Virus record (IMG/VR): IMGVR_UViG_3300031111_000236
Strand: one strand, 5' to 3'
Source: an uncultured virus (IMG/VR IMGVR_UViG_3300031111_000236)
Lineage: Duplodnaviria > Heunggongvirae > Uroviricota > Caudoviricetes
Length of the DNA stretch: 60,795 nt
The notes below the pieces were generated by a model, which was not told the DNA's origin, did not search any database, and saw nothing but the letters and a program-made list of their open reading frames with translations. Below are positions 11,172 to 54,525 of the stretch, in pieces. The position numbers and the translations under genes are program-made. How positions within the stretch are numbered: the stretch's first letter is position 1; the number at the start of each line of letters is the position of its first letter.

Positions 11172-11945
11172 ATGAGTTGGTTCGGAGAAAAGATAAGACA
11201 CGGGCACAGTGCCCGTCGTATTCATAGTGATAAGTCGGTCAGTAGCTTTGTGAACAACAATCCGAAGGCTATGGTCTACTTTTCACAGGAGGGCTGTGGG
11301 GCCTGTCGTGCGACAGACCCTATAGTCGATAAGCAGTCCAAGAAGCGGAACGCTAAAGTCAAGAAGGTCAACCTTTCCAAGGTCAGTGTCAAGAATTTTC
11401 CTGGGGTCACGGCAACTCCTACCATAAGGCTGTACAAGGAAGGTAAACAAGCTGGCGAAATCGTGGGCGTTCCAGAAGATGCCGACTTCAAGGTTCTTGG
11501 TACAACGAGGTCTTCGAAGAAGCCCCGCAAGCCCTCTACCAAAGCTCATAAGATGGGGGGTGGTCCGAAAGTCAGCCCCAAGAAGGAGAGCATCCAGAAA
11601 ACAGGGTGTATCGGGTGCTCGTCCGCTCATATTGCAGGAGCAAGCTCCATGCTCAACGAGTCTATCAGGTTCGCTGACGCTGGTGGTGTATCCCATCCCG
11701 AAGTTGTAAGAAGACTTGTACTCGCTCGTGAGGAGATAGTAGCGATGGAGCGTATCGACCTCTCCGAAGAAGCTATAGCTAACTCTCCCAAGAGAGACCA
11801 AGAGCTTGCCGCTGAGTTCAAGCCCCGCATTAGGCTGGTACGTCAACACATTACAGGTATCAAGAGCGTGAACGACCTCAAGAAGACTGCCCGTGAAGCT
11901 CGACAGTTGAATATCGACTTTACCAAGGCCCAGATGGGGATATGA
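11172..11945 (+). CDS. thioredoxin-domain protein with divergent N-terminal RH tag and C-terminal CxxC helical domain
   Basis: YFSQEGCGAC and TPT cis-Pro motif; WFGEKIRHGHSARRI; CIGC. Confidence 0.75.
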   Translation: MSWFGEKIRHGHSARRIHSDKSVSSFVNNNPKAMVYFSQEGCGACRATDPIVDKQSKKRNAKVKKVNLSKVSVKNFPGVTATPTIRLYKEGKQAGEIVGVPEDADFKVLGTTRSSKKPRKPSTKAHKMGGGPKVSPKKESIQKTGCIGCSSAHIAGASSMLNESIRFADAGGVSHPEVVRRLVLAREEIVAMERIDLSEEAIANSPKRDQELAAEFKPRIRLVRQHITGIKSVNDLKKTAREARQLNIDFTKAQMGI

Positions 11946-12598
11946 TGGCTTGGGACGGCGAGAGTCAGAGACATCGCTTAGCTCGACGTGGTATTATCTC
12001 TATTGCCAACACACCAGACATACCTGACGACTACGAGCTGGTTGATGATTATTTTGGTAAAGTGGCTAAGCAACCGCCAGGCCGACTCCCAGAGTATCTT
12101 GGTCTTGGTAGAGACGGGTCATGGTCGTGGTACGAGAAGAAGCTCTTGAACCTGTCGGGCAATGACAATGCAAGCCCCGAGATGCAGAAGCTCGCCAAGA
12201 GTCTGGTCAAAGGTCATAGAACACAGAGAAAGAAACTCGAATCGGTCTATGCCCATGTCACGAGTGAAATTGATACCATATACCATCTTGAGAAGATGGC
12301 TGGTCGTATGTACAGGTTCCTCAAGGGTGATGCGGCATCAGTGTGGGATAGGCGTGGGTCCTCTGGTGAGGCTTGTCACACACAGAGTATTCTCATGAGG
12401 AGTATGCTGTTATCCAGTGGGTCCTTCAAACCAAACGAGGTCAAGTTCGCCTATCATTGGCACAACTCGATACCGCATACGTATCTGAAGGTGTACCTAC
12501 GTGATGAGCGCAAGTGGATAGCTGTGGACCCAATAAGACAGGACTATGTGAAGGGTGCTACCAAGAACCCCCTCTTGGCCCTCGGTAAACATTTATAA
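11942..12598 (+). CDS. transglutaminase-like (Cys-His-Asp) protein with RH tag
   Basis: GEAC...HTYLKV...WIAVDP triad spacing; N-terminal WDGESQRHRLARRGI. Confidence 0.7.
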   Translation: MMAWDGESQRHRLARRGIISIANTPDIPDDYELVDDYFGKVAKQPPGRLPEYLGLGRDGSWSWYEKKLLNLSGNDNASPEMQKLAKSLVKGHRTQRKKLESVYAHVTSEIDTIYHLEKMAGRMYRFLKGDAASVWDRRGSSGEACHTQSILMRSMLLSSGSFKPNEVKFAYHWHNSIPHTYLKVYLRDERKWIAVDPIRQDYVKGATKNPLLALGKHL

Positions 12599-12643
12599 AG
12601 GTTTCCCTGAACCTATTTATATTGTCTATTCAATCGTATCTTC

Positions 12644-13555
12644 ATGAACAAGCCGCAAGGCTGGAAAGGGGATTCTCTTCGGCACGGACTGGCCCGTCGT
12701 GGGATTGATACAAGCCGCCTGATGACTGACATCGGTATAAGGGATATCAATAGAGCCGTCGTTCAAGACGGGTATCTGCCCAACTATGATACACTCACTG
12801 GTAGGGGTCCATCTTTTGTACAAAACAGGTTTGGGATGGCGCAGAGATATTGTCGTATCATCAAGAACGACTTCGAGAGGGTGATGGCCAGGTACAACGC
12901 TAAGGTTGTTGACGTACCTGGAAGTCGAGAACTGGTCTACGAAATACAACCCCCCTCTTGGAAGAAAGATAACCTTTCGGTCCTCGTATACTCAAGCATC
13001 ATTATGACAGGACAGGCCCGTGACTGTGGTGACGATGCTATCAGGGTTGTTGCAGTTCTTGACCATGACCCGAAGAAGATAGTATCGGGCAGGACGAAGA
13101 CGCTACGTATTGATTCCTGGGAGAAGAACCTCACTGCCAAAATAGACGACCTCTTGCAGTACGAACCTGTGACCTGCCCGAGATGTGGCTCTATGATGGT
13201 AGTCAGGACTAATAAGAGGACGAAAGAGAAGTTCATGGGGTGCTCTCAGTGGCCCAAGTGCTCACAGACGATGCCTATCAAGAGGCGTGATACATCGCTA
13301 CAACCGAAGAAGGCCCCCGCTGTCCGCAAGAACAATCCAGTAATTAGAAAGCACCAAGAGCAGATTATCAGAGACTTCTGGGACTACGAGAACATGATAA
13401 AGAGTCTCGACGACGCTATGAAGGACGGACGGCTCTCATACGACGAGAAACAGTGGTTACAGCGATGGGCGAGTCGGGAGTACGGGAAGTACTTGAAAGA
13501 CCCGAAGAGCTACGAGAGGGTACATTCCTTTGCGCACAGGGGGAAACGTAGATGA
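12644..13555 (+). CDS. RH-tag protein with topoisomerase-type C4 Zn ribbon
   Basis: CPRCGSMMVVR...FMGCSQWPKC; N-terminal GWKGDSLRHGLARRGI. Confidence 0.78.
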   Translation: MNKPQGWKGDSLRHGLARRGIDTSRLMTDIGIRDINRAVVQDGYLPNYDTLTGRGPSFVQNRFGMAQRYCRIIKNDFERVMARYNAKVVDVPGSRELVYEIQPPSWKKDNLSVLVYSSIIMTGQARDCGDDAIRVVAVLDHDPKKIVSGRTKTLRIDSWEKNLTAKIDDLLQYEPVTCPRCGSMMVVRTNKRTKEKFMGCSQWPKCSQTMPIKRRDTSLQPKKAPAVRKNNPVIRKHQEQIIRDFWDYENMIKSLDDAMKDGRLSYDEKQWLQRWASREYGKYLKDPKSYERVHSFAHRGKRR

Positions 13556-14511
13556 GGGGTAGAGGGTGGTTGGGTGACTCTGCAAGGCACTCGCTCAGTC
13601 GAGCGGGTATTCCTAATTCCTTCGGGTATAAGAAGGACTTTGTTACTTTTAGGAAGAAGGAGTGGCACGATGATTACCCAGACCCCGACCCTAAGAAGGC
13701 AAGAAAGGAGGTTAAGAAGAAGACATTAGATTTACAGGCCCTCATGGTGAACCCTGCCAGAGTAGAGGAAGAGCGTGATAAAATCACGGTCTATTTGCCT
13801 GATGACGAAGTGATGTATAACTTTAGCACGAGGTACGACGACAAATACAATGATTGGGATATCGACCCAGACTTTCTTCTTGACACAGAAAGACCAGCTT
13901 ACTACTTACTCATGATTACATATGGTAGACCAGAGGTAATCAAAGAGAATCAGGACCTTCAGGACGCTTTGATGATATCGATTATGAACCGACTCAGGAA
14001 CAAGAAGGACTATAAGTTCTGGTTTGACGGTAGCTGGATGTTTCTGGACGGCTTATCAATGGATAACAAACTGTTATTGTTGCCAAAACTATTGAGTCAT
14101 CTCAAGAGGGTAAGCACTCTACAGATGTGGTACAGAAATCAAAAGTACGAGGACCTTATTCAGATGTCTCTCGTAGGGGAGAGCGAAGAAGGAATACGCT
14201 TGCTATCGCACGTTCTCAAGGGTCATGAGTCATTTTTCGGCTTACCCACACGCTACATAGAGAACTTTGCTAAGGACGCTCGTGACATGACGGGTATGTA
14301 CGTCTACAACAAGGATGCAGACTTCATAATATATGCGCCAGTACCTAACGTTGATAATGAGGCGAGGGCGAAAGAGCTTTTCGAGAGGTGGACAGTACCT
14401 GCTCTCCAAGCCTGGAAAGGCGAAAAGTTGAAGGCGTACCTACCAAATATAGAGAACAAGTATGCCAGACAGATGGTAATCAAATACCTGGGTCTCAGGG
14501 TGGGAGCATGA
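13552..14511 (+). CDS. RH-tag protein, DIxPDFLLD family member 1
   Basis: GWLGDSARHSLSRAGIPNSFGY; DIDPDFLLD; DLQDAL. Confidence 0.8.
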   Translation: MRGRGWLGDSARHSLSRAGIPNSFGYKKDFVTFRKKEWHDDYPDPDPKKARKEVKKKTLDLQALMVNPARVEEERDKITVYLPDDEVMYNFSTRYDDKYNDWDIDPDFLLDTERPAYYLLMITYGRPEVIKENQDLQDALMISIMNRLRNKKDYKFWFDGSWMFLDGLSMDNKLLLLPKLLSHLKRVSTLQMWYRNQKYEDLIQMSLVGESEEGIRLLSHVLKGHESFFGLPTRYIENFAKDARDMTGMYVYNKDADFIIYAPVPNVDNEARAKELFERWTVPALQAWKGEKLKAYLPNIENKYARQMVIKYLGLRVGA

Positions 14512-15464
14512 AAACAGGGTGGACCTCGGACCCCGTGAGACACGGACTTGCCGCAAGAGGCATCAGTAACTTTGCCTACCGCCAGAACTTCATAGTGCAC
14601 GAGCCGAGAAAGACAGACGAGTTCACTGATAAGACCCAAGTTCTTGTCAATCTCTACAATAAGAAGATATACGACCTGATGCTCGACCCACAGAGGGTAG
14701 AGAAGCAGAAGGGGGAAATCAAGCTCATCATGCACCAGAAGACTTTCGAGAATTTCGACAAGGACTTCAAGCCTAATCTCGCTGGCAAGGATATACAACC
14801 AGACTTCCTGTTGGATGCGGCCAATCCTGGTGTTACGTTTTTTCTTGTCACTGGTGGGGACATGGGTATGGTCAGAAGTAATCCCGACCTACAGGACGCT
14901 CTCGTGATAAACTTGCTCCAGGGTATGGAAAAGTGGGGGCCGTATGAGGTCACTCACAGGGACTGGTACTATACAGATGGTCTCCCGTTCAGTACTAAGC
15001 TGGTAGTCCTACCTAAGATGCTCAAGAATCTCTTGTCCAGTAACTTGTATTCCGATGTATACAAGAACAAGACCATGCACTCCCTCTTGGAACAGGCGGC
15101 GGCTGGTCACTCGGAAGAAGAGGCTCAAGTGATACTGGACATTTTCAAGAGAGAGGCGGCTAAACACAGAAAGAAGCACGTCGATGAGAGCTTCAAAATA
15201 CTGGACTCCTACGAGCACATAGTCAAGGACGCAAAGGACCTCAAGATAGCCTATTTCTATTCCAACTTATCGACCTTGAGAGGCATGAGCTACTATACAA
15301 TACCAACAAGTGATGACAAGGACAGGTGTAGAGAGCTTTTGGATAGGTGGGGAGGCAAGCGTGCCAAGCTATTCTACGGCCCACTTGCGGAGGACGTGTA
15401 TTACAACCCAGAGTACTCGATGACTCCAACCACGGAGGCGTTGCTACGTGACTTGGCCGACTAA
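14508..15464 (+). CDS. RH-tag protein, DIxPDFLLD family member 2
   Basis: ATGA overlap start at 14508; GWTSDPVRHGLAARGISNFAY; DIQPDFLLD. Confidence 0.8.
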   Translation: MKTGWTSDPVRHGLAARGISNFAYRQNFIVHEPRKTDEFTDKTQVLVNLYNKKIYDLMLDPQRVEKQKGEIKLIMHQKTFENFDKDFKPNLAGKDIQPDFLLDAANPGVTFFLVTGGDMGMVRSNPDLQDALVINLLQGMEKWGPYEVTHRDWYYTDGLPFSTKLVVLPKMLKNLLSSNLYSDVYKNKTMHSLLEQAAAGHSEEEAQVILDIFKREAAKHRKKHVDESFKILDSYEHIVKDAKDLKIAYFYSNLSTLRGMSYYTIPTSDDKDRCRELLDRWGGKRAKLFYGPLAEDVYYNPEYSMTPTTEALLRDLAD

Positions 15465-16458
15465 CCCTATAAGGCATGGCCTCTCGGCTCGTGGTATTAG
15501 GAGCTTTGCCTATCGTGAGGGTTTCATCGAAACGAGGAACATCGATGATAAGTGGCTTGATGAGAATTTCCACCTGAGATATCCTCGAAGGCATAACGAA
15601 AGCCTATTCAAACTGTTGACAGAGCCAGAGGAAGTGGAGTCACGAGCCTTCACAGACAGTGCTACTGGTAAGCTACATGGCGGAATCATAGTGAGTCGTC
15701 ACCCCGACGTGTTTGAGGACTTCAACAAGAAATATGGTGAACAGATACAAAGCGGTGAGCTTGATATAAAACCAGACTTTATGCTGGATGCCGATGACCC
15801 TGTATCGCTCTTCTTCATGGTGACCAACGGTGACATGGAACTTGTGCGTAGGACACCTGACCTTCAGGACGCTCTTGTAGCGTCTATTCTCAAGCGTGTC
15901 CGTGATGGTGATTATAATCGGATTTACTATTATCTTGACAGTCTTCCCACCGAAACTAAGATGTACCTCTTGCCCAAGATGATTAACGCAATCATAGATG
16001 ACCGACGAATTGAGAGGATAGTGAAAGAGACCCTCTTGAGGGGGATGTACGTCACTTCTACTGTTGGACACTCGCAAGATGACGTGGAGGTTCTGCTGAA
16101 GCTCTACAAACAGATAATGAGGAGGAAACTCAAGGCTGTCGATGGGTGGGACCTAACGGGTATATTCACACTCTGGGATTGGATGCCTTACGATGCGAAG
16201 GACATAGACATACTCTATGCTTACGAGAACAGAGCCAATATGCACTCTATAAACTACTACGTGCTTCCGACTTCCAAGAGCCGCCCGAGGGGTCGTGAAC
16301 TCTTGGATAGGTTGGGAACCTCTTGGGACGTTGATAGAGTACACAAGGCTTACAAGGACAACCTCTACTATGATAGGAGCCTCCCGCAGAATAAGAAAAT
16401 GCTCAACAGGACGACTAAGTTCCTACTCGATGAGAGGGGCAAGAAGGGGTGGTCTTGA
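15448..16458 (+). CDS. RH-tag protein, DIxPDFLLD family member 3
   Basis: TWPTNPIRHGLSARGIRSFAY; DIKPDFMLD. Confidence 0.8.
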   Translation: MTWPTNPIRHGLSARGIRSFAYREGFIETRNIDDKWLDENFHLRYPRRHNESLFKLLTEPEEVESRAFTDSATGKLHGGIIVSRHPDVFEDFNKKYGEQIQSGELDIKPDFMLDADDPVSLFFMVTNGDMELVRRTPDLQDALVASILKRVRDGDYNRIYYYLDSLPTETKMYLLPKMINAIIDDRRIERIVKETLLRGMYVTSTVGHSQDDVEVLLKLYKQIMRRKLKAVDGWDLTGIFTLWDWMPYDAKDIDILYAYENRANMHSINYYVLPTSKSRPRGRELLDRLGTSWDVDRVHKAYKDNLYYDRSLPQNKKMLNRTTKFLLDERGKKGWS

Positions 16459-17372
16459 TGGGATGGCCCAAGAGTCCACTCAGGCACGGTCTATCAGGAA
16501 GAGGTGTCAAGAGCTTCGCCTACAAGCCCAACTTCGTTAGCTACTCACTGCCGCCTCGCTCAGAGGAAATGAGACTCAACGCTGTGATTAATCTGCACGA
16601 CCTCATGCTCACACCTACGAAAATAGAGCAGGAGCACGACAGCATAGCTCTCTATCTCAACTTGGCTGATATGAATAGGTTTGACAAGACCTTTGGTGAA
16701 AAGCTCAGGGAAGATGATATTCAGCCAGACTTTCTTCTTGATGCGGCTCCGAGAGCGTCTCCCCTCTTGTACTTCGTGACAAACGGTAGCAGGAAGCTCT
16801 TCGAGGTGAACGACTCGCTCAGGGCCTCTGTAGTTGTCTATATGCTCACTGTTATGGACGACCCTAAGTTCTGGTCCAATAATGACTATGTGTACTTCAA
16901 TGTGTTAACACCTGATGAGAAGATAGTGCTACTCCCCAAGATGCTACGGAGAGTGGCCGCTCTTGACCCTGGTAATAGGGGCACTATTCTCAAGGACCTC
17001 TACATACTGTCAGTGGCTGGTATGAGCGTAGAGGATAAGAACGTTTTCCTGAAGACGCTTAATAAGGCTGTTAGCGAACAGAAGCAGAACATAGCTAACT
17101 CCCTGTCCCTCGACACTATGGCCGATGCTGTCCGCAAGATGGACACCCAGGACATGAAGGTCTTCTACTACATGACCAAGAACGGTAAGCTCGGGTGGAG
17201 TCTCCTACCAGACACAGATGACCTGGAGCACTTCTTATACCTTGTGGAGCAGACGGGGACCAACCTCTTGGAAGAAATCAAGTACGGGCAGATTCATTAC
17301 AACTCTTCTGAGCTACCGAGCTTCTTCCAGAGTCAGGAGTACGAAGAGCTTCTGGAAGATTTAGCTATATAA
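16458..17372 (+). CDS. RH-tag protein, DIxPDFLLD family member 4
   Basis: TGATG overlap; GWPKSPLRHGLSGRGVKSFAY; DIQPDFLLD. Confidence 0.8.
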   Translation: MGWPKSPLRHGLSGRGVKSFAYKPNFVSYSLPPRSEEMRLNAVINLHDLMLTPTKIEQEHDSIALYLNLADMNRFDKTFGEKLREDDIQPDFLLDAAPRASPLLYFVTNGSRKLFEVNDSLRASVVVYMLTVMDDPKFWSNNDYVYFNVLTPDEKIVLLPKMLRRVAALDPGNRGTILKDLYILSVAGMSVEDKNVFLKTLNKAVSEQKQNIANSLSLDTMADAVRKMDTQDMKVFYYMTKNGKLGWSLLPDTDDLEHFLYLVEQTGTNLLEEIKYGQIHYNSSELPSFFQSQEYEELLEDLAI

Positions 17373-17428: not shown

Positions 17429-17686
17429 ATGGCTGACTTCGGAATACTTGGCCTGACCTTTGGACTGGCATACTCTGTCGTGTACCTGGCTCTTCTCGTG
17501 TTGAGAGTAGTACTTGTACCCTCGATAACGATAAGCGCATACAGGAACGGCAGGAGCGTGCTGTTCTGGGGTATCTTAGCCATGATAGTACCCATAGTTG
17601 CCCTCGTCTGCTTCATGTTCCTTGGGAACGAGAAGAAGAGGGACGTGTGCTACGCATGGAAGGACTGTGCCAAAAAGGGAAAGTAG
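17429..17686 (+). CDS. small membrane protein
   Basis: Two hydrophobic helices; basic tail with a Cys pair; GGTGAT SD. Confidence 0.7.
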   Translation: MADFGILGLTFGLAYSVVYLALLVLRVVLVPSITISAYRNGRSVLFWGILAMIVPIVALVCFMFLGNEKKRDVCYAWKDCAKKGK

Positions 17687-17701
17687 AACCCATACCACAC
17701 G

Positions 17702-17947
17702 GTGGTACGCATGGCGAGGAAGAAGCAAGAGGCGTGTCTAATTCGACATCCGAAAGGACACTGCCTGGACGATAACATATTGAACACGGTCATAGTGTTC
17801 ATTGGCTGGATTATAGTCACCGTTTCTGGTGCTATAGTACTGGCCGCTGTCATAGCTTTCGTCCCTCTTAATGTCTGGACCATACTCACTGCATTTGCTG
17901 TGATGTTCTTCGGGTTCCTCCTGACCCAAGTCGGTATCAAAGACTAA
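17702..17947 (+). CDS. small membrane protein
   Basis: Two hydrophobic helices. Confidence 0.65.
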   Translation: MVRMARKKQEACLIRHPKGHCLDDNILNTVIVFIGWIIVTVSGAIVLAAVIAFVPLNVWTILTAFAVMFFGFLLTQVGIKD

Positions 17948-17958
17948 CAGGTGGTCAT

Positions 17959-18657
17959 ATGGCCTTCGATAATGAACCTCTGAGACACGGACTATCAAGA
18001 CGGGGTATTCCCCATAGCAAGAGCTTCGCTCAGAGTCCTGCCTGTCCTGTGGACAGTATAGGACTACACTGCAATGTACCAGATTCGCAGTTCGACCCGA
18101 GACAGCTACAAACGGGCATACGTATCGAGATGGAGGAGCACACGAAGAATCCTGTGGTCGCCAAGGAGATAGCTAAGGACCATCTCTCAGAGCACCCTGA
18201 TTACTACTCGTGGCTTGTTGAGATGGAGATGGCGGCGGCGGCGACCAATACCTTCAAGAAGCTCGTAGCGTCTCAGGACACCAGCAAGTTCGAGAAGAGT
18301 AACCAGAACCCCGTAAGCCCACCGAGACAGGCCCCTCCGCAGGACTTGGCCTTCGGTTATGCGACATTGCCTAAGTACAAGGGCGGCTCGGGTGCGGGGA
18401 AGCTCAAGGTCGGTAAGAAGGTCACTAAGCCCTCGCAGTTCAAGGTTGGTGAGACCTATATTGCCGTGAGCAACCAGTTCAAGAGCATCAATGTGATGAA
18501 GGTCAAGGAGAGGAGTGACGGCCCGTCAAAGGGTGTTATGGCCGTCTTCGTGGACCCCAATGACCCGAGGAAGAAGCGTCTGAGCGACGATAGGGAGTTC
18601 TTCATACACGACTTCCAGTTGAAGTATGACGAGGACGTGTACTACGAGGTTAGGTGA
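17959..18657 (+). CDS. RH-tag protein with DUF5661-like domain and a second C-terminal domain
   Basis: FDNEPLRHGLSRRGI..SFA; GIRIEMEEH..AKEIAKDHLSEHPDYY. Confidence 0.75.
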   Translation: MAFDNEPLRHGLSRRGIPHSKSFAQSPACPVDSIGLHCNVPDSQFDPRQLQTGIRIEMEEHTKNPVVAKEIAKDHLSEHPDYYSWLVEMEMAAAATNTFKKLVASQDTSKFEKSNQNPVSPPRQAPPQDLAFGYATLPKYKGGSGAGKLKVGKKVTKPSQFKVGETYIAVSNQFKSINVMKVKERSDGPSKGVMAVFVDPNDPRKKRLSDDREFFIHDFQLKYDEDVYYEVR

Positions 18658-18866
18658 CACTCTTGGATTTTATTGCCATAATAATGTTCTTTTTAGCCTT
18701 TGTTACTGGACTGGCGAGTATATTTTTCTTTATCCTGAGTATTGTCATGTTTAAAAAGGTTCGCCCATTGAGGGGGACGTTATTCATGGTTGCGAGTGTT
18801 TCCCTGTACGTTACTCATGCTGTGATTATGGTACTGTATGTACTGGCTGACTATTTCAGTAGCTGA
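18654..18866 (+). CDS. small membrane protein
   Basis: Two TM helices; GTGA overlap. Confidence 0.65.
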   Translation: MTLLDFIAIIMFFLAFVTGLASIFFFILSIVMFKKVRPLRGTLFMVASVSLYVTHAVIMVLYVLADYFSS

Positions 18867-18876
18867 AAAAGAAAAG

Positions 18877-18952
18877 TAGCGGCGGACAGATTTGAACTGT
18901 CGGTCTACAGGTTATGAGCCTGTCGGGATATACCTGGCTACCCCACACCGCT
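18877..18952 (-). tRNA. tRNA-Met(CAT), initiator-like
   Basis: Reverse complement AGCGGTG...ACAGG-CTCATAA-CCTGT...GACAG-TTCAAAT-CTGTC-CGCCGCT-A; A1-U72 pair; TATA ~35 nt upstream and T-run downstream on the minus strand. Confidence 0.93.
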
Positions 18953-19001
18953 ATTACAAGGTAACCTTCTTATAGGCGAGATACCATATATAAGCGTTCC
19001 T

Positions 19002-19181
19002 ATGGCAGTGATTACTACAGCGTTTGCACTCTTGACAACCCTCTTGCTCGGTATAATCATGTTAGCTTCTGGTCTTGTATTGTTGTTATTCGGAGCTATC
19101 TGGATTTACATCGCAGGATGGTTTATAGTATCTCCAATTAAGGACTGGTGGCGATGTCGTAGGGTCGATAGAGTCAAATAG
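19002..19181 (+). CDS. small membrane protein (59 aa, below the ORF-track cutoff)
   Basis: MAVITTAFALLTTLLLGIIMLASG...WWRCRRVDRVK, translated by hand. Confidence 0.55.
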   Translation: MAVITTAFALLTTLLLGIIMLASGLVLLLFGAIWIYIAGWFIVSPIKDWWRCRRVDRVK

Positions 19182-22032: not shown

Positions 22033-22300
22033 CCAAAAACCCCCCAATATAGTAATATTATACGACACTATTATACACATATGTATAACATTTTTCGGGC
22101 ATATTCACCCATTTTAAAAAGTGCTTCGCATGATTTCGCAGTCGAGATGTCTTTTAGGCCCCATATTCAAAATCACGAAACCGATAAAAATTCAAGGGTG
22201 TTCAGAACAGATGTGTCCATTCTATATTGTCTTTGGGACTCGACCCCTCTCGAAACACCTTATTACATACCCCCGAGAATATAACCGTGGTGATAGCAAA

Positions 22301-24915: not shown

Positions 24916-24964
24916 GCGCATATCCACCCATTTCTTTTTATATTTCCACTTTTTTTCTACTCAC

Positions 24965-25495: not shown

Positions 25496-25534
25496 AACCC
25501 AATTCTTTTTATACTTTGACCATAATCGGAACAT

Positions 25535-30196: not shown

Positions 30197-31666
30197 GTGG
30201 TCAAGAGCAAGGGCTTTACAGACAATCCGAGCAGACACTCTCTGAACGCCAGGGGTATCCCTAACCAGACTTTTGCGCAGTCGAGTCGAGACCAGAGCAA
30301 GGAGGTTCTCGCTCAACTCTTGGACGAGAGCAACTGTGGCTGGTTCTCACACAAGAGAGATAACCTGGCTAAGGAAGCCGATGGCTGGAGAAAGCGTGCG
30401 GTCCGTGAGACCGATAAGGTGGCCAAGCAGAGGTTCTTGGACAAGGCCGAGTCTTATGATGACTCTGTTGCGATGGTCAACGAGGTCATGATAGAGGGCG
30501 GCTGTGGCCCTCAGTCTTTTGGGAGTCTCGCAGTCAAGGACCCTACGAGGCCCGATGAGCACAACCACACGCTGTTTCTTGACCCGTGGGAGATAGGCGA
30601 ACTCGAAGCATCTGGGAAGCCTATCGATAGTTCTAATCCCAAGGAAGAGGTCAACATCCTGGTATACAAGTTAGACCAGGACATAATCGGGAAGATGAAG
30701 CCCGAGCACGTTGCGCAACTGAACGACTCAATTAAGAGGGAGATAGCCACTCTTGAAAGGACGGGTAAGGACCCACGTCGCCTGAAGTATCTCAAGAACT
30801 TCCAGACTGGTGTCGAAGCCGAAATGCAAAAGCACTCGTCTCAAAGGTCTTTCGCCAGTCTTACCGTGGATAGGACGAGTGCCATTGGCGGTAAGAGCAC
30901 TGTTGTTTTCCTGGACGACCAGGAGATAGACAAACTCAAAAGGGGACGCTTCGTGCGCAGTATCAACGAGCGTGACCATGTGGGTGCTATGGTAATACCT
31001 CTTACCGATGCCCAGATAAAACATCTCGACGGCGACCAACTGAAGCAGTTGCGCAAGGAGATTAACAAGGAGAAGCACTTCAACGAGAAGAGCGATGCTC
31101 GTGTTGCCGAGAACAGGGACAAGTTCTTGGAAGAGCTGGACAGCAAGGTGGTAGCGGAGTTGAAGAAGCGCAATATCACCCCACCACGTGGTTTTAAGAT
31201 GGCTCAGTCCCAGAGGGGATGCGGTCAGGTCATTATCAGCGGCGACAAGATAACTGTCACGGACGAGAGCGGAGTCGAGATTCGTCATTGGGAGAAGGAG
31301 GACTGGCAAGACAATCCAAACCTCGTACCCAGGATGGTGGACGACAGCATCAAGGCTTCGCACTGCTCGCTCCCTGGCCAGCGGTCCTTTGGGATGCCGC
31401 TCCCGAAGCGTGGACGTGATAGGGTTAGGAAGGTTACCCACTACCCCCAATCAAACAGAGTCGTTGTGCAGGACGCAGGGCGGCAGAAGTTCGAGGAGAA
31501 GAGTGTGGGTCTCTTGGCTCTAAGACCTTTCTCCGTGGAGAAACAGTCACCGAAAAAGGGAACTAAGGTTCACCTGGTCTATCATGAGAGTCAGAACGCC
31601 GAGTGTGAGCGGACGAAGATAGACGGCGACGACGTTGTATTCTGTCAGCCGAAGAGGAAGAAATAA
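30197..31666 (+). CDS. RH-tag multidomain protein (putative polyprotein)
   Basis: GFTDNPSRHSLNARGIPNQTFA; internal QSFG, RSFA, RSFG; duplicated domain. Confidence 0.8.
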   Translation: MVKSKGFTDNPSRHSLNARGIPNQTFAQSSRDQSKEVLAQLLDESNCGWFSHKRDNLAKEADGWRKRAVRETDKVAKQRFLDKAESYDDSVAMVNEVMIEGGCGPQSFGSLAVKDPTRPDEHNHTLFLDPWEIGELEASGKPIDSSNPKEEVNILVYKLDQDIIGKMKPEHVAQLNDSIKREIATLERTGKDPRRLKYLKNFQTGVEAEMQKHSSQRSFASLTVDRTSAIGGKSTVVFLDDQEIDKLKRGRFVRSINERDHVGAMVIPLTDAQIKHLDGDQLKQLRKEINKEKHFNEKSDARVAENRDKFLEELDSKVVAELKKRNITPPRGFKMAQSQRGCGQVIISGDKITVTDESGVEIRHWEKEDWQDNPNLVPRMVDDSIKASHCSLPGQRSFGMPLPKRGRDRVRKVTHYPQSNRVVVQDAGRQKFEEKSVGLLALRPFSVEKQSPKKGTKVHLVYHESQNAECERTKIDGDDVVFCQPKRKK

Positions 31667-31671: not shown

Positions 31672-32748
31672 GTGGCCCTCTTGGGATGGCCAAAGGACCC
31701 CGCACGACATAGATTGTCTTCACATGGCATCCAGTCCAGGCGTGCCTTTGGGTATAGCAAGGATTTTGTGAAGGTTATTCATGACGGTAGCCCCGACGAC
31801 AGGAACACCAAGGAACAGCATAGGGAGCTGTGGCTTCTAATGCGTGACCCTGAGAGCGTTGAGGACGCATGGAGTCCATTCTCGGTACATATCAACAAGG
31901 GCAACATGGCCGAGTTCGCCAAGTGGTCCAAGGACAAACAGAACGATGATACCTACCTCTTGAAGGACGTGGATATGGAGCCTGATTTTCTACTTGATGT
32001 CTCTCGCAAGACGAAAAGGATTAAGTCTGGAAATTCACCACCTTTTGTCACCTATCCTATCCAAGAGGAACCTCTCACGCAACTTCTCATCTTTCATACC
32101 ATTAACGGAGATTCCGACACTATCAAAGACAATGCTGGCTACCGAGAAGCAGTACTACTGAATATGCTTGATGAGAAGAAGAAGTTCGATGAGGCCGAGG
32201 ACACTATCGATTTCTATCTTGGTAAGCACTACTACTTCCTCGACACTCTATCCGCAGAGGAGAAGGTTCTGGCCTTGAAGTATATCCTCCCCAAGCCAGA
32301 GCTTCTTATAAGCGCAGACAGTAATCATTCATACATTATCGCTGACCTGATACAGATGACCTTTATGGGTCTGAAAGACGAGGCTGTCGAGTCACTACGA
32401 ACGACGTTCAAGAGGTACATCGGTGACATGAACAACTATCTTGGTCCGAAAGTACCGAGACGACACAAGGAACGGGACGAGCTTCTTGAACTGATGGATA
32501 TAAGTATCAAGCATAAGGACGACCTTGTGAGTTTTTATGCCTACGCTCCACAACAAAAGAAGGACGGCACTTTTGAGCGTGAGTTCGAGTACTTCGTAAT
32601 GCCCAAGGAGCCCCAGAAACAGTATGGGGAGTTCAACCCAATTTACTCGGACTGTAACTACATCATCTACGCTCCGAAGGGTTGGGTATACAACCGCAAG
32701 TACCATAAGTACATCAAGGCCGAGCGTGCCCACAGAAGGTTGAAATAA
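31672..32748 (+). CDS. RH-tag protein, DIxPDFLLD family member 5
   Basis: GWPKDPARHRLSSHGIQSRRAFGY; DMEPDFLLD. Confidence 0.8.
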   Translation: MALLGWPKDPARHRLSSHGIQSRRAFGYSKDFVKVIHDGSPDDRNTKEQHRELWLLMRDPESVEDAWSPFSVHINKGNMAEFAKWSKDKQNDDTYLLKDVDMEPDFLLDVSRKTKRIKSGNSPPFVTYPIQEEPLTQLLIFHTINGDSDTIKDNAGYREAVLLNMLDEKKKFDEAEDTIDFYLGKHYYFLDTLSAEEKVLALKYILPKPELLISADSNHSYIIADLIQMTFMGLKDEAVESLRTTFKRYIGDMNNYLGPKVPRRHKERDELLELMDISIKHKDDLVSFYAYAPQQKKDGTFEREFEYFVMPKEPQKQYGEFNPIYSDCNYIIYAPKGWVYNRKYHKYIKAERAHRRLK

Positions 32749-50721: not shown

Positions 50722-51288
50722 ATGAGCAAGCCGAAAGGTTTCACTGATAACCCAGAGCGTCACAGACTCAACAGTGCTGGAATCCCGAATAAGACGGCCT
50801 TTTCTGCCCCTCAGCTACCTCCAGTCAAAACAGGTTTACCAGCGAGAGGTGTCTCACCCAAGCGTTCCGAGCGTAAGCAACCGCCGTTCGCAGAGAAGCA
50901 GTTGTCCGAGGTTGAGAAGATGGCTCGTGAAATGGTTGGTGATGGTGGGGACCCGAACAAGTTCTTCGTGTCTATCTACAGCGACTATGACTACATCCAC
51001 GAGGACGAGGACGGGGCTATGGCTCAGGAAGGCATCGACGACCTGATACCAGGCTTCGAGGGGAAAGGCGGGACTGTCAAGATGTTCGACTCTTGGAGCG
51101 AGGCCAAGGAGTACATAGAAGATGGATACGCCTATCTTGGCATGAAGGAGGACGACTTCATCGTGAACAGGATTGTGGTCGAGGACCGCAAGAACGGGGT
51201 CATCTATGAGCAGGTCAAGCTCTTCAACCCCAAGAACGGGACCATGAGAGAGGACATCCGTGATGACAGTGGGTGGCTCGACGAGTGA
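50722..51288 (+). CDS. RH-tag protein
   Basis: GFTDNPERHRLNSAGIPNKTAFS; AGGTGAT SD. Confidence 0.8.
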   Translation: MSKPKGFTDNPERHRLNSAGIPNKTAFSAPQLPPVKTGLPARGVSPKRSERKQPPFAEKQLSEVEKMAREMVGDGGDPNKFFVSIYSDYDYIHEDEDGAMAQEGIDDLIPGFEGKGGTVKMFDSWSEAKEYIEDGYAYLGMKEDDFIVNRIVVEDRKNGVIYEQVKLFNPKNGTMREDIRDDSGWLDE

Positions 51289-51299: not shown

Positions 51300-51569
51300 A
51301 TGGCGAAAAAAGGACAAATATGCAACCAACCGAACAAGTGGTTCTGGCTTGGTAACCCGCTCTTACTGTTCGGGTTGCCCCTGCTTTTCGTAGTGGGAGC
51401 TGTGGGACATAACGTCGTCTACGCTATCAACGAGATGGTAGGCGGGAACCTCGCTCTTGAGATACTTGAGGGTGCGCTCTTCCTTCTCGCAGTACCCTTT
51501 GCTCTGGTGTGGTTCGTGATAGCTATCATATACACCATCGTCAAGAGGGGGAGGTGTGGTTCATGGTAA
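51300..51569 (+). CDS. small membrane protein
   Basis: Two TM helices. Confidence 0.65.
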   Translation: MAKKGQICNQPNKWFWLGNPLLLFGLPLLFVVGAVGHNVVYAINEMVGGNLALEILEGALFLLAVPFALVWFVIAIIYTIVKRGRCGSW

Positions 51570-51769
51570 AGGAGGGTGGGTGGAAGAAGACCATCACGGC
51601 CCTTACGTTCATCGTGTTGGGACTGTTCGCTGTCATTACAGCGACTATACTCATCGGGGCCGACATCCTGGGGGACGTGTTCAGATACCTGCTACCTTGG
51701 GGCCTGGTACTCTTGGGCATCTTTTCGGCGATAGGGTTCACCGTTGCACTGAAGGATAGGAAAAGATGA
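51563..51769 (+). CDS. small membrane protein
   Basis: Two TM helices; GGAGGTG SD. Confidence 0.65.
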   Translation: MVKEGGWKKTITALTFIVLGLFAVITATILIGADILGDVFRYLLPWGLVLLGIFSAIGFTVALKDRKR

Positions 51770-51773
51770 TATC

Positions 51774-52694
51774 ATGAAAGCGAAAGGCTTCCCAGGTAAC
51801 CCTGTGAGACACTCATTGTCTTCCAGAGGTATTCACAATCGGGTTGGGGTGTTCGCCACACCACAGTCACGACAAGAGATTATCAACGCTTTCAACTTCG
51901 CTGTCAAGTACAACGAGCAGATGCGTGAGAAGGTCAAAGACATCAAGGTGAAGTACTACAGTCAAGGTAACCTCTTGAGCAATCCTGTTGATAGTCTTCT
52001 GATAGATGATAAGCTGGAAGAAAGGCGGCCAAGGGTACTCTACGAACTGGTACAGGATATGTTCAGAGAGAAGGGTATAGAGAACATCAATGTACATGAC
52101 TCCGACATGAAACCTCTCATGGACCTCTTGGAGCAGAACGGGTATCCAGAGGAGCTGAACTTCAGAATAATCGAGAACTGGATAGACAGAACGTATGTCC
52201 AGAGGTCTGACGATTTTGCATTGAAAAACCTTACCAGCGTCGCTGACGGCGGCCTGTACGGGAGGTATAGCACCGCCAGTGTACAGAGAACAGATGGTTT
52301 TGGTAAGAAAGTTCCCACTTTCAGGACTGGCTCAAAGGCTAACTTCAGGATTTACAACGAGGACAGCTCGTGGGGTACACCCAGGATGAAGTGGAGCGAG
52401 GTTGACAAGCTGAGGGCTATCGAGAAGCTCATCCTCCTGACGTTCGATAATAGGCTCGACCCGAGTGAGGATATACCGACTGACATAGCCCGTATGTACG
52501 ATACGCAGTACAGGGACCCAAAGCCTGTGACACCTCATGACAAGCACTCTGTATCCCCGAGCACGAGGATAGGCAAATACGTCGAAGCCGTGAAGTGGTA
52601 TAAGAACAACAAGTTCGAAATCATCTTCAGGAGCGAAGACATGGCCAGGAAGGTAGAGGAGCGTTTCAAAGTCCTCTTCCCGAACAAGTTCTGA
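51774..52694 (+). CDS. RH-tag protein, IEKLIL family member 1
   Basis: GFPGNPVRHSLSSRGIHNRVGVFA; IEKLILLTFD; SPSTRIGKYV. Confidence 0.8.
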   Translation: MKAKGFPGNPVRHSLSSRGIHNRVGVFATPQSRQEIINAFNFAVKYNEQMREKVKDIKVKYYSQGNLLSNPVDSLLIDDKLEERRPRVLYELVQDMFREKGIENINVHDSDMKPLMDLLEQNGYPEELNFRIIENWIDRTYVQRSDDFALKNLTSVADGGLYGRYSTASVQRTDGFGKKVPTFRTGSKANFRIYNEDSSWGTPRMKWSEVDKLRAIEKLILLTFDNRLDPSEDIPTDIARMYDTQYRDPKPVTPHDKHSVSPSTRIGKYVEAVKWYKNNKFEIIFRSEDMARKVEERFKVLFPNKF

Positions 52695-52706
52695 GGACGT
52701 TAGACA

Positions 52707-53588
52707 ATGACAGGATTCCCAGGCGACCCGAATAGACACGCCCTATGTTCGAAGGGTATATCCAATCAGCCTGGGGTATTCGCATCTCCGCAGTTCCGAG
52801 CAAACATGGCCAAAGCCTACAACGATATTCAATTTCATGACTCCGAGATAGACCGTATTATCAAGCTCTACGGCGATATGTACTATAGGGATAATCCGAA
52901 ACAGAACCCGCTCCTCTTGAAACGAGACGGTGCACCAGATGAGTTCAAGTCGAATGTGATAAGTGCCATTGCTAATGACTTTGTAGATGATAATCCAGAC
53001 GCTATACCTCTCGGGGAGTCGGGAAAGGTAAATGACCTTCTTGACCTACCTGTGGACGGCAATAGAATAGAGGCGTGGCTTCAGGATACTCTTGTTACGA
53101 AGGCGGACGACGTAATGATGGGGAACATCAAGGTGGATGCAGAAAAGATACTCTATGGTGTGTATCGCAAGGGCTATGGCGTATCGCCACGTCCGAAGTT
53201 CCGTGATGACGATACAATCGTGCTCCGTGCTACTGGTACAAAAGACCTCAACAACAAGATAGCCATGAGTTGGTACGCTCAAGAGGGTATCGATGGTATA
53301 GAGAAGCTAATCCTCATGGCTTTTGACAAGAGGATAAGTCCCGCAGACCCTTTCGGTAAGCTGGTGATGCGGGATATCTATCGTCACTACATTGGTTATA
53401 GGAGAGCATACGCACCGCACCAGATATCGCCTTCTACCCCTGTTGGTAAGTACGTTAGTAAGGTAGAGTGGGACGGTGATGAGTTACGTGTCACGTTCAG
53501 AAGCATCGATATGGCCAAGCACTTCGAAAAGGAGATGTGGGAGCTGTATCCTGACAAATTCAAAACTGCGAGATTACCAGGGAGATGA
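52707..53588 (+). CDS. RH-tag protein, IEKLIL family member 2
   Basis: GFPGDPNRHALCSKGISNQPGVFA; IEKLILMAFD; SPSTPVGKYV. Confidence 0.8.
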   Translation: MTGFPGDPNRHALCSKGISNQPGVFASPQFRANMAKAYNDIQFHDSEIDRIIKLYGDMYYRDNPKQNPLLLKRDGAPDEFKSNVISAIANDFVDDNPDAIPLGESGKVNDLLDLPVDGNRIEAWLQDTLVTKADDVMMGNIKVDAEKILYGVYRKGYGVSPRPKFRDDDTIVLRATGTKDLNNKIAMSWYAQEGIDGIEKLILMAFDKRISPADPFGKLVMRDIYRHYIGYRRAYAPHQISPSTPVGKYVSKVEWDGDELRVTFRSIDMAKHFEKEMWELYPDKFKTARLPGR

Positions 53589-53592
53589 AATC

Positions 53593-54525
53593 ATGAGCGG
53601 CAAGAAGAAAGGGTTCACAGACAACCCATTGACACACGGACTGAACGCACGTGGTGTACCCAACCAGAGAGCGTTCGCTAACAAAGCAGGAGAGTGGGAA
53701 CCAGAGATGAAACCCGTCACCGTTACGTTCACAGGGGACGACATAAAGAAGATAAACCCCGTTTTCAGGGACGTAATGGGTATGGATTTTGACAGTCGCT
53801 TTCATGGAGAGCTTGCGGACACATATAGTGAAAGCCACAAGAAGCTCAAGGCTATAGAGAAGGTGGCCAGCTTCAGTGGATACCCGTTCGAAGAGGAGTG
53901 GAAAAAGGAGTTTGGGAACGTCTTTGGGTATGCTGATAACCCTGCCGCCTACATGACCGATGAGTACAGGGTCAACACCCGCAAGTTCCTTGAGACCAGA
54001 GACAATGCCGCTCTCAAGGCTCTCAAGAGGTCGGTCATCAAGAACATGAAGAGTCACCCTGACAACAACGTCCTCATGACCAAGCACATCGTGGACATCG
54101 GTCTCATTGACGAGATACTACAAGAGCGTGGCGAGTCTACCGATGTCGAGGGTAGCAAGGACTTCATCAAGATGTCCGAGACCTTCAAGAAGGAAGGAGC
54201 CGCCTTCGCCTCCCCACAGGTCTTTGCGTCCGCTGAGATGAAAGGGTGGGAGAAGAACAAGGTAGTCGAGATGGACGAGGAGGACATCGAAATATTCGAT
54301 GCCAAGACCCAGAAGATGATACGCAAGTACATGAAGAAGGGCGACCTCTACTATATGTTCGGCTTCCTGGTCTTCGAGGACGACAAGTCTCTGCGCATAG
54401 TTGGCGAGAACGACTCCTACGACAAGTACACCATCAGGATGAGAACCAAGAACTTCGACAAGGTGTATGACCGTCTCGACGGGGCCGATGGTGGGGTCTA
54501 CGCTACAACAGAGGGCTGGAAGTAG
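53593..54525 (+). CDS. RH-tag two-domain protein
   Basis: GFTDNPLTHGLNARGVPNQRAFA; internal AAFASPQVFAS. Confidence 0.8.
   Translation: MSGKKKGFTDNPLTHGLNARGVPNQRAFANKAGEWEPEMKPVTVTFTGDDIKKINPVFRDVMGMDFDSRFHGELADTYSESHKKLKAIEKVASFSGYPFEEEWKKEFGNVFGYADNPAAYMTDEYRVNTRKFLETRDNAALKALKRSVIKNMKSHPDNNVLMTKHIVDIGLIDEILQERGESTDVEGSKDFIKMSETFKKEGAAFASPQVFASAEMKGWEKNKVVEMDEEDIEIFDAKTQKMIRKYMKKGDLYYMFGFLVFEDDKSLRIVGENDSYDKYTIRMRTKNFDKVYDRLDGADGGVYATTEGWK

Follow-up and report, generated by a model that had tools for sequence, protein, structure and literature searches.

What is the function of a short peptide that recurs at the N-terminus of fourteen otherwise dissimilar proteins encoded within 60,795 nucleotides of DNA from an uncultured virus record (the whole stretch analysed here, hereafter the window)? 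The original prediction was that this peptide, built around an Arg-His pair and called here the RH tag, is a portable address label that loads effector proteins into the virion, or another compartment, for delivery to the next host.

Fourteen genes of the window open with the RH tag

Translation from each of the 14 start codons reproduced the predicted N-termini. All 14 ORFs open with [WF]-x2-[DENS]-[PS]-x-RH-x-L-x3-G[IV], 12 of them strictly and two as divergent copies, 11172 (RHGHSARRI) and 53593 (TH replacing RH), as had been anticipated. In a six-frame translation of the window, the strict expression [WF].{2}[DENS][PS].RH.L[SANC].{2}G[IV] yielded 12 matches, all on the + strand and all at these starts. 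The looser RH.L.{3}G[IV] recovered the identical 12 sites and no extra one, whereas 50 mononucleotide shuffles averaged 0.26 matches and never exceeded 1; the loosest core pattern added a single unrelated match on the minus strand (25060, 165 residues into its frame). Furthermore, an HMM trained solely on 206 metagenomic tags, and hence free of window sequences, detected 11 of the 14 tags of the window at E<0.05, while no unrelated frame scored better than E=1.2. The tagged genes and their bodies are as follows.

11172..11945, + strand: tagged gene 1, 257 aa, thioredoxin domain after a divergent tag (PF00085, E=6.9e-10)
11178-11222, + strand: tag of gene 1, residues 3-17, SWFGEKIRHGHSARRI, divergent copy
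11942..12598, + strand: tagged gene 2, 218 aa, tag nt 11951-11995, weakly transglutaminase-core-like (PF01841, E=0.02, below cut-off)
12644..13555, + strand: tagged gene 3, 303 aa, tag nt 12662-12706, body with a C4 zinc ribbon of the topoisomerase type (residues 176-214; PF01396, Zn_ribbon_Top1, E=1.1e-10)
13552..14511, + strand: tagged gene 4, 319 aa, tag nt 13567-13611, family A (motif, BLASTP)
14508..15464, + strand: tagged gene 5, 318 aa, tag nt 14520-14564, family A, modelled with AF2 (motif, BLASTP, AF2)
15448..16458, + strand: tagged gene 6, 336 aa, GTG start, tag nt 15454-15498, family A (motif, BLASTP)
16458..17372, + strand: tagged gene 7, 304 aa, tag nt 16464-16508, family A (motif, BLASTP)
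17959..18657, + strand: tagged gene 8, 232 aa, tag nt 17965-18009, DUF5661 at residues 43-90 (motif, Pfam)
30197..31666, + strand: tagged gene 9, 489 aa, GTG start, tag nt 30215-30259, orphan body (motif, BLASTP)
31672..32748, + strand: tagged gene 10, 358 aa, GTG start or start three codons downstream, tag nt 31687-31731, distant family A (motif, BLASTP)
50722..51288, + strand: tagged gene 11, 188 aa, tag nt 50740-50784, orphan body (motif, BLASTP)
51774..52694, + strand: tagged gene 12, 306 aa, tag nt 51789-51833, family B (motif, BLASTP)
52707..53588, + strand: tagged gene 13, 293 aa, tag nt 52716-52760, family B (motif, BLASTP)
53593..54525, + strand: tagged gene 14, 310 aa, TH for RH, tag nt 53614-53658, orphan body (motif, BLASTP)

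Three of these genes start with GTG (15448, 30197 and 31672); the database gene call for the last begins three codons downstream, as MGWPKD. Tandem tagged genes are translationally coupled, with stop and start codons overlapping at 11942, 13552, 14508, 15448 and 16458. After removal of residues 1-35, BLASTP comparison at E<=0.01 sorted the bodies into family A (13552, 14508, 15448, 16458 and 31672), family B (51774 and 52707) and seven singletons. The thioredoxin, zinc ribbon and DUF5661 assignments proposed for the bodies are supported by Pfam, and the two paralog families by this comparison; the transglutaminase-like assignment of 11942 has only a sub-threshold full-length match to PF01841, at 15.6 bits against a cut-off of 23. 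As also predicted, neither Pfam annotation nor the tag HMM placed a tag on the DNA-metabolism genes of the window.

The tag is conserved as a peptide and modelled as a flexible arm

The consensus of 373 copies is [KR]-G-[WF]-x2-[ED]-[SP]-x-R-H-[SGA]-L-[AS]-[AS]-[RK]-G-[IV]-[KRP]-[TS], and in most copies (319 among those counted) the His follows the initial Met by 9-15 residues. At least 10 tag positions are conserved at 90% or more across elements that otherwise have nothing in common. The codons are scrambled, with Leu written by all 6 codons, Arg by 5, and the same codon used at identical tag residues in just 238 of 691 comparisons; therefore, selection acts on the peptide. The tag is real and its amino acid sequence is under selection. 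Tags also show element-specific dialects, identity at the variable positions rising from 0.27 between elements to 0.42 within one, but codon identity only from 0.34 to 0.44.

In the AF2 model of the gene 5 protein (14508), tag residues 1-21 stay below a pLDDT of 50 and form a short helix at 9-15, whereas the helical body is confidently folded (pTM 0.75), with no fold match found for the model. The model thus shows the tag as a flexible arm, detached from the fold of the body and containing a single short helix. The arm would consist of one two-turn helix (RHxLAAR) closed by a Gly cap, after which a basic linker usually leads into an unrelated, soluble and mostly acidic body. The 20 residues after the tag carry a net charge of +0.15 per residue, and tagged bodies have a median pI of 5.8. 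In the window tags, G[IV] is followed by x(3-9)-F-[AG], and elsewhere by a basic linker. TM-like segments occur in none of the 14 tagged proteins of the window, in 7 of 239 tagged proteins elsewhere and in 74 of 190 neighbours.

The 14 window proteins lack features of Sec, Tat or class III signal peptides, the tag being polar, without a hydrophobic core or TM-like segment. No conserved cleavage motif was found downstream of the tag in the window or in the wider tag alignment, nor a conserved [LI]-x-E site of the T4 type. Residues 1-25 had no Pfam or NCBIfam match and the tag profile had none among PDB sequences, both with E up to 10, and our literature search found no publication with this tag.

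The same tag occurs on unrelated proteins of other elements

An exhaustive tag-HMM search of 1.84 billion proteins returned 173 cluster representatives at E<=1e-3, nearly all matching at residue 1-5. Among the non-window matches listed, 135 of 138 contain the tag, which starts at residue 5 or earlier in 121 of those 135, in agreement with the expectation of an N-terminal rather than randomly internal motif. A few proteins have two tags or internal tags, several of the doubly tagged ones being small and very basic. Furthermore, three tag-like repeats lie at the C-terminus of one protein that reads as LAGLIDADG-like (homing-endonuclease-like), with no Pfam match at E<=0.001.

At 74 metagenome loci, the tag heads 239 of 607 ORFs, in co-oriented arrays of which the largest has 22 genes in 13 kb. 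One 56-kb contig holds 12 tags, and the remainder of the same bin holds zero. The window's own 185-kb contig encodes at least nine further tagged proteins, for a total of at least 23. We examined 270 bodies from all loci, and these fell into 165 unrelated phmmer clusters, 125 of them singletons, confirming that tagged proteins are not full-length homologues. Recognisable domains include thioredoxin, nucleotidyltransferase, GNAT, ADP-ribosyltransferase/Tpt1-like, M78 peptidase, MoxR ATPase, HNH_repeat, HTH and Top1-type zinc ribbon, as well as DNA enzymes tagged outside the window (topoisomerase IB core, polymerase-beta thumb domain); two to three tagged proteins have a weak, sub-threshold match to ART-PolyVal. 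The DUF5661 body (17959) is the only window body in common with the tag arrays of other elements. No other non-tag protein was common to the window and other tag-bearing elements in the 60 of 185 kb read; therefore, no shared element-encoded receptor is visible in that part.

The motif is not mainly cellular either, as had been foreseen: in the genomes of one class, 3 of 301 gave a tag match, convincing in one only, and one exact tag 9-mer had 4 real loci in 185,579 species genomes. The single tagged gene in a cellular archaeal context adjoins an Orc1/Cdc6-like gene. Pattern scans of IMG/VR returned no matches, though long tag-bearing JGI contigs exist, so the anticipated viral assignment of the hits was not obtained. 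The tag is portable, N-terminal, arranged in tandem arrays and enriched on mobile elements. A portable address label on unrelated, effector-like proteins is well supported, and the RH tag looks like an undescribed address or docking label. Element-specific dialects on unrelated bodies fit a specific protein partner.

Virion genes and membrane context

Pfam and PHROGs searches for capsid, portal, scaffold, prohead protease, terminase and encapsulin found none in the 78 ORFs of the window, and none on tag-bearing contigs elsewhere (scans of 75 + 112 + 89 ORFs and about 100 array neighbours). PHROG internal- and head-protein families were matched by 0 of the 14 tagged proteins. On the window's own contig, this search reached 60 of 185 kb, in a set of highly divergent proteins. 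Hence, the portable label of the original prediction held up, but its virion destination did not gain support: no capsid, portal, protease or terminase gene was found, the IMG/VR scans were empty and a T4-style cleavage site was lacking.

Small ORFs with two to four predicted TM segments lie in, or close, each of the three tag clusters of the window.

17429-17947: small TM ORF (TM-segment prediction)
18654-19181: small TM ORF (TM-segment prediction)
32748-33038: small TM ORF (TM-segment prediction)
51300-51769: small TM ORF (TM-segment prediction)
54538-54828: small TM ORF (TM-segment prediction)

Tag-bearing contigs are rich in membrane and surface proteins, including one family rich in NxS/T sequons and one conserved, TM-anchored double Ig-like protein. 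In the wider set, TM proteins were not enriched directly beside tagged genes (27 of 103) relative to positions farther off (38 of 114), and the small TM ORFs showed no conservation between elements.

Comparison with known systems

Internal proteins of phage T4 (IPI-III, Alt) carry a short N-terminal capsid-targeting sequence that ends in a prohead-protease site, [LI]-x-E, and is then removed; IP loci are polymorphic in T4-like phages. Like this sequence, the RH tag is a short N-terminal peptide common to otherwise unrelated soluble proteins of one element, whose genes cluster in variable loci, with an ADP-ribosyltransferase-type enzyme and proteins presumed to act in counter-defence among the cargo. 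However, the RH tag is the longer of the two at about 20 residues, is basic, is conserved in elements that have nothing else in common, is not followed by [LI]-x-E, heads no protein of a PHROG internal-protein family, was found with no prohead protease, scaffold or capsid, and belongs to probably archaeal hosts. Iyer et al. (2017; PMC5512222) describe the ADP-ribosyltransferase Alt of T4, like further polyvalent effectors, as carried in the phage head and injected together with the DNA. The tagged set resembles these DNA-co-delivered effectors in its ADP-ribosyltransferase (the weak ART-PolyVal match), nucleotidyltransferase and peptidase, but consists of separate small proteins, each with its own tag, unlike polyvalent proteins, in which many domains make up one polypeptide. 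Furthermore, Pfam scans found no MuF or portal domain, or fusion of either, with the RH tag, which sets it apart from MuF systems.

NUMOD3 is a one-helix DNA-binding module of homing endonucleases, which usually carry DNA-binding modules at a C-terminal position. It resembles the RH tag as a short, repeatable module in which an extended stretch is joined to one helix and a Gly, between basic flanks, and RH-tag-like units are C-terminal on the LAGLIDADG-like protein. Conversely, the RH-tag helix is about one turn shorter by inspection, and neither NUMOD3 (PF07460) nor other Pfam DNA-binding models match the tag, although NUMOD3 matches an untagged neighbouring endonuclease (L027:957-2078). A looser analogy is offered by RxLR and PEXEL, short motifs near the N-terminus that assign the products of hundreds of clustered, diversifying effector genes to a single trafficking route; these motifs come after a signal peptide, in the secretory pathways of eukaryotes, and have no sequence relation to the RH tag.

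Possible roles of the tag

A peptide without common function, inherited as a 5' exon-like remnant or as a recombination or translation-initiation element of duplicated genes, would agree with the coupled tandem genes, their five overlapping junctions and the greater similarity of tags within one element. Codon analysis has already largely refuted it: synonymous sites are scrambled while residues are kept, the bodies are unrelated, and the same peptide persists at its conserved positions across elements without other shared content, making this reading highly improbable. Export or membrane recruitment, with soluble effectors handed to an element-encoded membrane translocon or envelope, would account for the small TM ORFs at each window cluster and for the surface-rich contigs. 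It is nevertheless improbable, as the tag has no hydrophobic core and the TM proteins are neither commoner beside tagged genes nor, for the small ORFs, conserved. A linear motif docking tagged proteins on one conserved host machine hijacked during infection (a replication, transcription, translation, chaperone or degradation hub) is suggested by the short, flexible, single-helix N-terminal tag, by its conservation across unrelated elements, and by its near-confinement to mobile-element contigs rather than host genomes, as viral mimicry predicts. However, the endogenous host clients expected are almost never seen, competition of 20 or more different proteins for a single host site is hard to explain and no candidate hub was found, so that we consider this reading unlikely.

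The tag may also be a nucleic-acid (nucleoid) tether, a minimal DNA- or RNA-binding arm (extended G-W segment, short helix with small Ala-Ala-x-Gly faces, basic tail) holding enzymes and regulators on element or host DNA, from which co-delivery with DNA could follow as a by-product. The conserved W, R, H, R/K, G, K/R and T/S, the obligatory small helix residues, the basic stretch that follows, the triple and doubled copies, the DNA-related bodies (including nucleotidyltransferases), the Orc1/Cdc6-like neighbour of the sole cellular copy and the likeness to NUMOD3 argue for it, and near-invariance fits an unchanging target. Against it, Pfam DNA-binding models miss the tag, many bodies have no obvious DNA role (thioredoxin, GNAT, MoxR, the orphan helical family A), generic DNA binding would not be expected to produce element-specific dialects, and the DNA-metabolism enzymes of the window are untagged. 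This makes a tether somewhat unlikely in our estimate; judged from sequence, tags on DNA enzymes and C-terminal repeats on the LAGLIDADG-like protein would fit it about as well as a capsid label. Near-invariance across elements with nothing else in common also points, against the co-delivery reading that we prefer, to a target that evolves slowly, for instance nucleic acid or some core machinery of the host. Because of this extreme conservation and the repeats on the homing-endonuclease-like protein, a nucleic-acid or host-hub tether is a serious rival.

We prefer, tentatively, co-delivery by docking: the RH tag would serve as a portable docking peptide, some 20 residues long, at the N-terminus and outside the fold of the protein it heads. 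Since the same arm sits on many proteins (at least 23 on this 185-kb contig), one common partner can collect them all, and a single partner probably reads the tag. Its destination is less certain, a particle, or co-delivery with DNA, being possible. Many recognisable bodies, among them ADP-ribosyltransferase/Tpt1-like, nucleotidyltransferase, GNAT, M78 peptidase, MoxR ATPase, thioredoxin, topoisomerase IB and polymerase-beta, belong to enzyme types that mobile elements send ahead of or with their DNA. Perhaps, then, the tag brings this arsenal into or onto the element's transmissible form, to arrive in the next cell with the DNA, in the manner of the capsid-targeting sequence of T4 internal proteins. 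In this view, one arm would be placed on a large and fast-changing set of proteins by an unclassified mobile element, itself large, whose uncultured hosts are probably archaeal. The same tag heads hundreds of unrelated proteins in environmental DNA and is far more general than one window.

The RH tag is conserved as a peptide in the window

Translation from all 14 starts reproduced the N-termini of the original prediction, including the two copies described as divergent, those of the genes starting at 11172 (RHGHSARRI) and 53593 (TH for RH). Translated in six frames, the 60,795-bp window has 12 matches to the strict pattern [WF]-x2-[DENS]-[PS]-x-RH-x-L-[SANC]-x2-G[IV], all on the + strand, all at predicted starts, and beginning 2-8 residues past the start codon. 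The looser core RH-x-L-x3-G[IV] returned the same 12 matches and no others in six frames, compared to 0.26 on average and never more than 1 in 50 shuffled windows. Furthermore, a control HMM built without window sequences from 206 tags of other metagenomic contigs found 11 of the 14 window tags at E<0.05, the top unrelated frame scoring E=1.2. The tag is slightly longer than first noted, as the residue before the W/F is Gly in 10 of the 14 genes; in most window tags an aromatic and a small residue (F-A or F-G) also lie 3-9 residues past G[IV].

Within the 16-codon core of the 14 genes, Leu is encoded by all six of its codons and Arg by five, and a residue shared between two genes uses the same codon in only 238 of 691 cases. 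With synonymous codons scrambled, neither recent gene conversion nor conservation of a DNA or RNA element explains the tag. Selection targets the tag peptide.

To group the bodies, i.e., what remains after the tag, the first 35 residues were deleted and the rest was compared by BLASTP. Family A comprises 13552, 14508, 15448, 16458 and, distantly, 31672; family B comprises 51774 and 52707; the other seven bodies are singletons. Pfam confirmed the thioredoxin (11172), the topoisomerase-type zinc ribbon (12644) and DUF5661 (17959). The match that had led 11942 to be called transglutaminase-like spans the full length of the protein but is sub-threshold (E=0.02). An AlphaFold2 model of the 14508 protein, for which nine relatives were used, has a confident helical body (pTM 0.75) without a Foldseek match at E<=0.001 in PDB or BFVD. 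The tag (residues 1-21) has a pLDDT below 50 and a short helix at residues 9-15 as its sole structure. Since the tag is of low confidence beside a confident body, it is modelled as a detached arm outside any domain rather than as part of one.

Genomic context of the tag clusters

Other features of the window are as follows.

224-296, + strand: tRNA-Gly(GCC)
2826-4064: Zn-dependent phospholipase-C-like protein, secreted or TM-anchored, immediately upstream of the first tag cluster
17429-19181, 32748-33038, 51300-51769 and 54538-54828: small ORFs with two to four TM segments, inside or ending each tag cluster
18876-18952, - strand: tRNA-Met(CAT), the sole clear minus-strand feature
23355-24014 and 27176-27991: untagged paralogues of 219 and 271 aa (phmmer), of no known family
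28866-30128: 420-aa DNA topoisomerase-like protein (phrog_6247, E=7e-77)
59614-60795, 42683-43192, 403-969, 22121-23155 and 24893-27110: accessory genes

The genes of the window are otherwise all on the + strand, with a steadily positive GC skew, and Rfam found only the two tRNAs. The accessory set encodes a PTH2-type peptidyl-tRNA hydrolase followed by an RtcB ligase, a SLOG/YAcAr protein, two radical-SAM proteins, a UDG-family glycosylase and an OGG-like glycosylase. The topoisomerase-like protein is 59% identical to Cellulophaga and Chryseobacterium phage proteins and has an extra C-terminal zinc-finger region. One of the small TM ORFs matches phrog_9201.

Three large proteins lie just 5' of the first tag cluster (2826-10373), two of which are giant paralogues (1022 and 1039 aa, 42% identical) that have a single TM segment each, at the N-terminus. 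Neither giant had a family or PDB match, and phmmer with three large window proteins against PDB returned no match. Giant proteins also occur upstream of tag arrays in three unrelated contigs (L007, L085 and L086).

The tag heads more than 100 unrelated protein families

A profile of the 14 window tags scored against 1.84 billion cluster representatives matched 173 proteins at E<=0.001. Among the best 150 of these, 12 were the window's own proteins, and a recognisable tag was found in 135 of the 138 others; the three exceptions include one repetitive plant protein. The tag was predicted to be N-terminal, and this held outside the window: among those best 150 of 173 matches, 121 of the 135 non-window tags begin at residue <=5 and 131 at residue <=20. 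When 30 profile matches were looked up, nine more tagged proteins were located on the window's own 184,795-bp contig, one of which (P0065, outside the window) has a MoxR-type AAA domain. The element thus encodes at least 23 tagged proteins.

The consensus outside the window is M-x-K-G-W-x-x-E-[SP]-x-R-H-S-L-A-A-[RK]-G-I-[KR]-T. Numbered from the H of RH as position 0, G-8, W-7, R-1, H, L+2, [RK]+5, G+6 and I/V+7 are each >=92% conserved over 373 copies, figures that are inflated for one tag per metagenome locus, as these loci were fetched by the exact 9-mer RHSLAARGI. The tag is covered by no Pfam or NCBIfam model or PDB sequence, its profile had 0 matches in PDB, and the ESM Atlas, queried with the tag region, offered only unnamed clusters at scores below 0.8. 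Literature searches yielded no relevant occurrence of the core strings RHSLAA, RHGLAA, RHSLSA and RHSLAS, nothing on DUF5661, and nothing relevant on conserved N-terminal tandem proteins of DPANN viruses.

A 9-mer scan of JGI metagenomes returned 198 stretches, 143 of which were confirmed, and 74 loci were kept. In these loci 239 of 607 ORFs are tagged, adjacent and co-oriented; arrays reach 22 tagged genes within 13 kb of a 111-kb contig, 11 on another contig and nine in one locus. The 270 bodies from all loci fell into 165 clusters, 125 of them singletons. Domains found in tagged proteins are Polβ-type nucleotidyltransferase, GNAT, ART/Tpt1-like (YLYHGTS), M78 peptidase, MoxR AAA, JAB, NIF/HAD phosphatase, HTH regulators, HNH_repeat, topoisomerase IB core, polymerase-beta thumb, DUF5661 and DUF7417. 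TM-like segments are present in 7 of 239 tagged proteins versus 74 of 190 neighbours, and in none of the 14 window tagged proteins. Tagged bodies are acidic (median pI 5.8), and the 20 residues past the tag are basic. The RH tag is a very widespread, undescribed N-terminal tag that heads more than 100 unrelated protein families.

Tag carriers are large unclassified mobile elements

The tag carriers are large unclassified mobile elements, probably archaeal. With the 9-mer as query against one genome for each prokaryotic species, 37 stretches were found; six were confirmed, and four of these six had real N-terminal tags. In an archaeal bin, all 12 tags were on one unidirectional 56-kb contig with Mom-like, Cas4-like, HNH and intein genes; in a second bin, all three were on a related 37-kb contig with an intein-bearing family B polymerase. 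Across the class of one of these bins, only 3 of 301 genomes had any match, two of them doubtful. Two related contigs from archaeal chromosomes have one tagged gene apiece, adjoining an Orc1/Cdc6-like gene. This 191-aa gene (L012 13397-13969, L013 13595-13663), conserved between the two, lies directly downstream of the Orc1/Cdc6-like ATPase, near shikimate-pathway genes, and may be a domesticated or integrated copy.

Several virus-like contigs (L007-L011, L022, L061-L064 and L085-L086) form a coherent group, 37-56 kb or larger, in which no recognised capsid gene was found. Their common set includes NxS/T sequon-rich surface proteins that form a multi-paralogue family, giants that have a C-terminal domain in common, a Cas4-like nuclease, a protein of ~300 aa that hosts an intein and a highly conserved 333-aa protein (76 homologues). 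The latter was considered as a capsid candidate of these 'G2-type' contigs and rejected, as its model combines two Ig-like sandwiches with a TM helix and a C-terminal helix, which is not a capsid fold. Tag arrays of a third element type have a MoxR-type AAA ATPase and a VWA-domain protein as neighbours (L019 6613-8610; L031 12125-15582).

The archaeal attribution is based on archaeal bin titles, the Orc1/Cdc6 context, PTH2 in the window, and the sequon-rich surface proteins and inteins. One related tag-bearing contig falls in a bin titled as a bacterium, and for the window's own element an archaeal origin is probable rather than established. The RtcB of the window has diffuse phage matches.

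It had also been anticipated that tag matches would be viral. This was not borne out in IMG/VR, where the patterns HSLAARGI, GF[RQV][DN][NE]PxRH and [GS]LS[AS]RGIP[HN] had no matches, although long tag-bearing contigs stem from JGI metagenomes. An IMG/VR search with two single tagged proteins found no relatives. None of 50,697 phage and 72,556 plasmid records matched a tagged protein of 30 aa in tblastn, a weak test given the short query.

Discussion

Since a portable tag heads unrelated bodies, we infer one common reader, and the tag would be the handle by which it collects unrelated soluble proteins. Delivery with the element's transmissible form, in which tagged proteins would travel into the next cell, is the likeliest single destination, albeit short of an even chance. 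At variable tag positions, identity is 0.42 within an element versus 0.27 between elements, even on unrelated bodies, while tag codon identity climbs only from 0.34 to 0.44. Such element 'dialects' would be expected if the tag co-evolved with a specific partner. Functionally, the nearest known system is the capsid-targeting sequence (CTS) of phage T4 with its internal-protein loci, the model of the original prediction. The likeness holds for unrelated soluble proteins and polymorphic clustered loci, and the tagged enzyme repertoire resembles that of proteins travelling with phage or plasmid DNA described in PMC5512222. However, the tag differs from the CTS in sequence and cleavage motif, and no accompanying head genes have so far been recognised. 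Across the window and several hundred ORFs on contigs with tags, Pfam and PHROGs detected no capsid, portal, scaffold, protease or terminase, and lent the virion destination no support. Furthermore, BLASTP and phmmer comparison of 60,795 bp of the 184,795-bp contig revealed only the DUF5661 body as common to the window and the other elements with tags; hence no common element-encoded receptor is visible.

Together, the lack of recognised head genes or of a visible common receptor, the empty IMG/VR scans, the invariance of the tag, doubled tags and tagged DNA enzymes make two rivals, a nucleic-acid tether and a host-hub mimic, serious and keep delivery below an even chance. The tag could instead tether proteins to nucleic acid or the nucleoid, which we consider unlikely but deserving of weight: some proteins carry doubled tags, and on other contigs topoisomerase IB and polymerase-beta-like proteins begin with the tag, but NUMOD3 does not match it. 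P0034, a 213-aa protein matched by the tag profile, points the same way, as its C-terminal 90 residues contain three tag-like units in a row (HLKGF-x-G-[ND]-[SP]-E-x-H-[RS]-L-[NS]-[AS]); by inspection, its N-terminal part resembles a LAGLIDADG endonuclease motif, without a Pfam match for the protein at E<=0.001. The near-invariance of the tag on otherwise unrelated elements suggests an unchanging target, and mimicry addressed to a host hub is a further, rather improbable reading. That the tag is an export signal appears very improbable. Its main support is the small TM ORFs beside all three window tag clusters, but the association is not general, as ORFs adjacent to tagged genes are TM-like in 27 of 103 cases versus 38 of 114 non-adjacent ones, and small TM proteins were rejected as general tag partners. 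A Sec, Tat or pilin signal is excluded because the tag has no hydrophobic core.

Taking delivery further, the tag might be the recognition code of an unseen protein-delivery system used by several unrelated lineages of uncultured viruses or other mobile elements, probably archaeal, with one conserved reader and well over a hundred effector families shipped with the DNA, a proposal we regard as rather doubtful. Such a code of the archaeal mobilome would parallel the T4 CTS or the eukaryotic RxLR/PEXEL effector codes. As a delivery or docking code, the tag would point to a reader, which may be the DNA itself, a host hub or part of the particle, and would offer a small portable handle for loading foreign proteins. 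A 20-residue profile would then be a search key that lists the accessory and effector repertoire of tag-bearing elements directly from raw metagenomes, an arsenal that would span hundreds of orphan families and known enzyme folds, in large mobile elements seemingly missed by current virus-detection pipelines. Even on the rival readings, the tag is a widespread, sharply conserved mini-module outside Pfam, NCBIfam and PDB.
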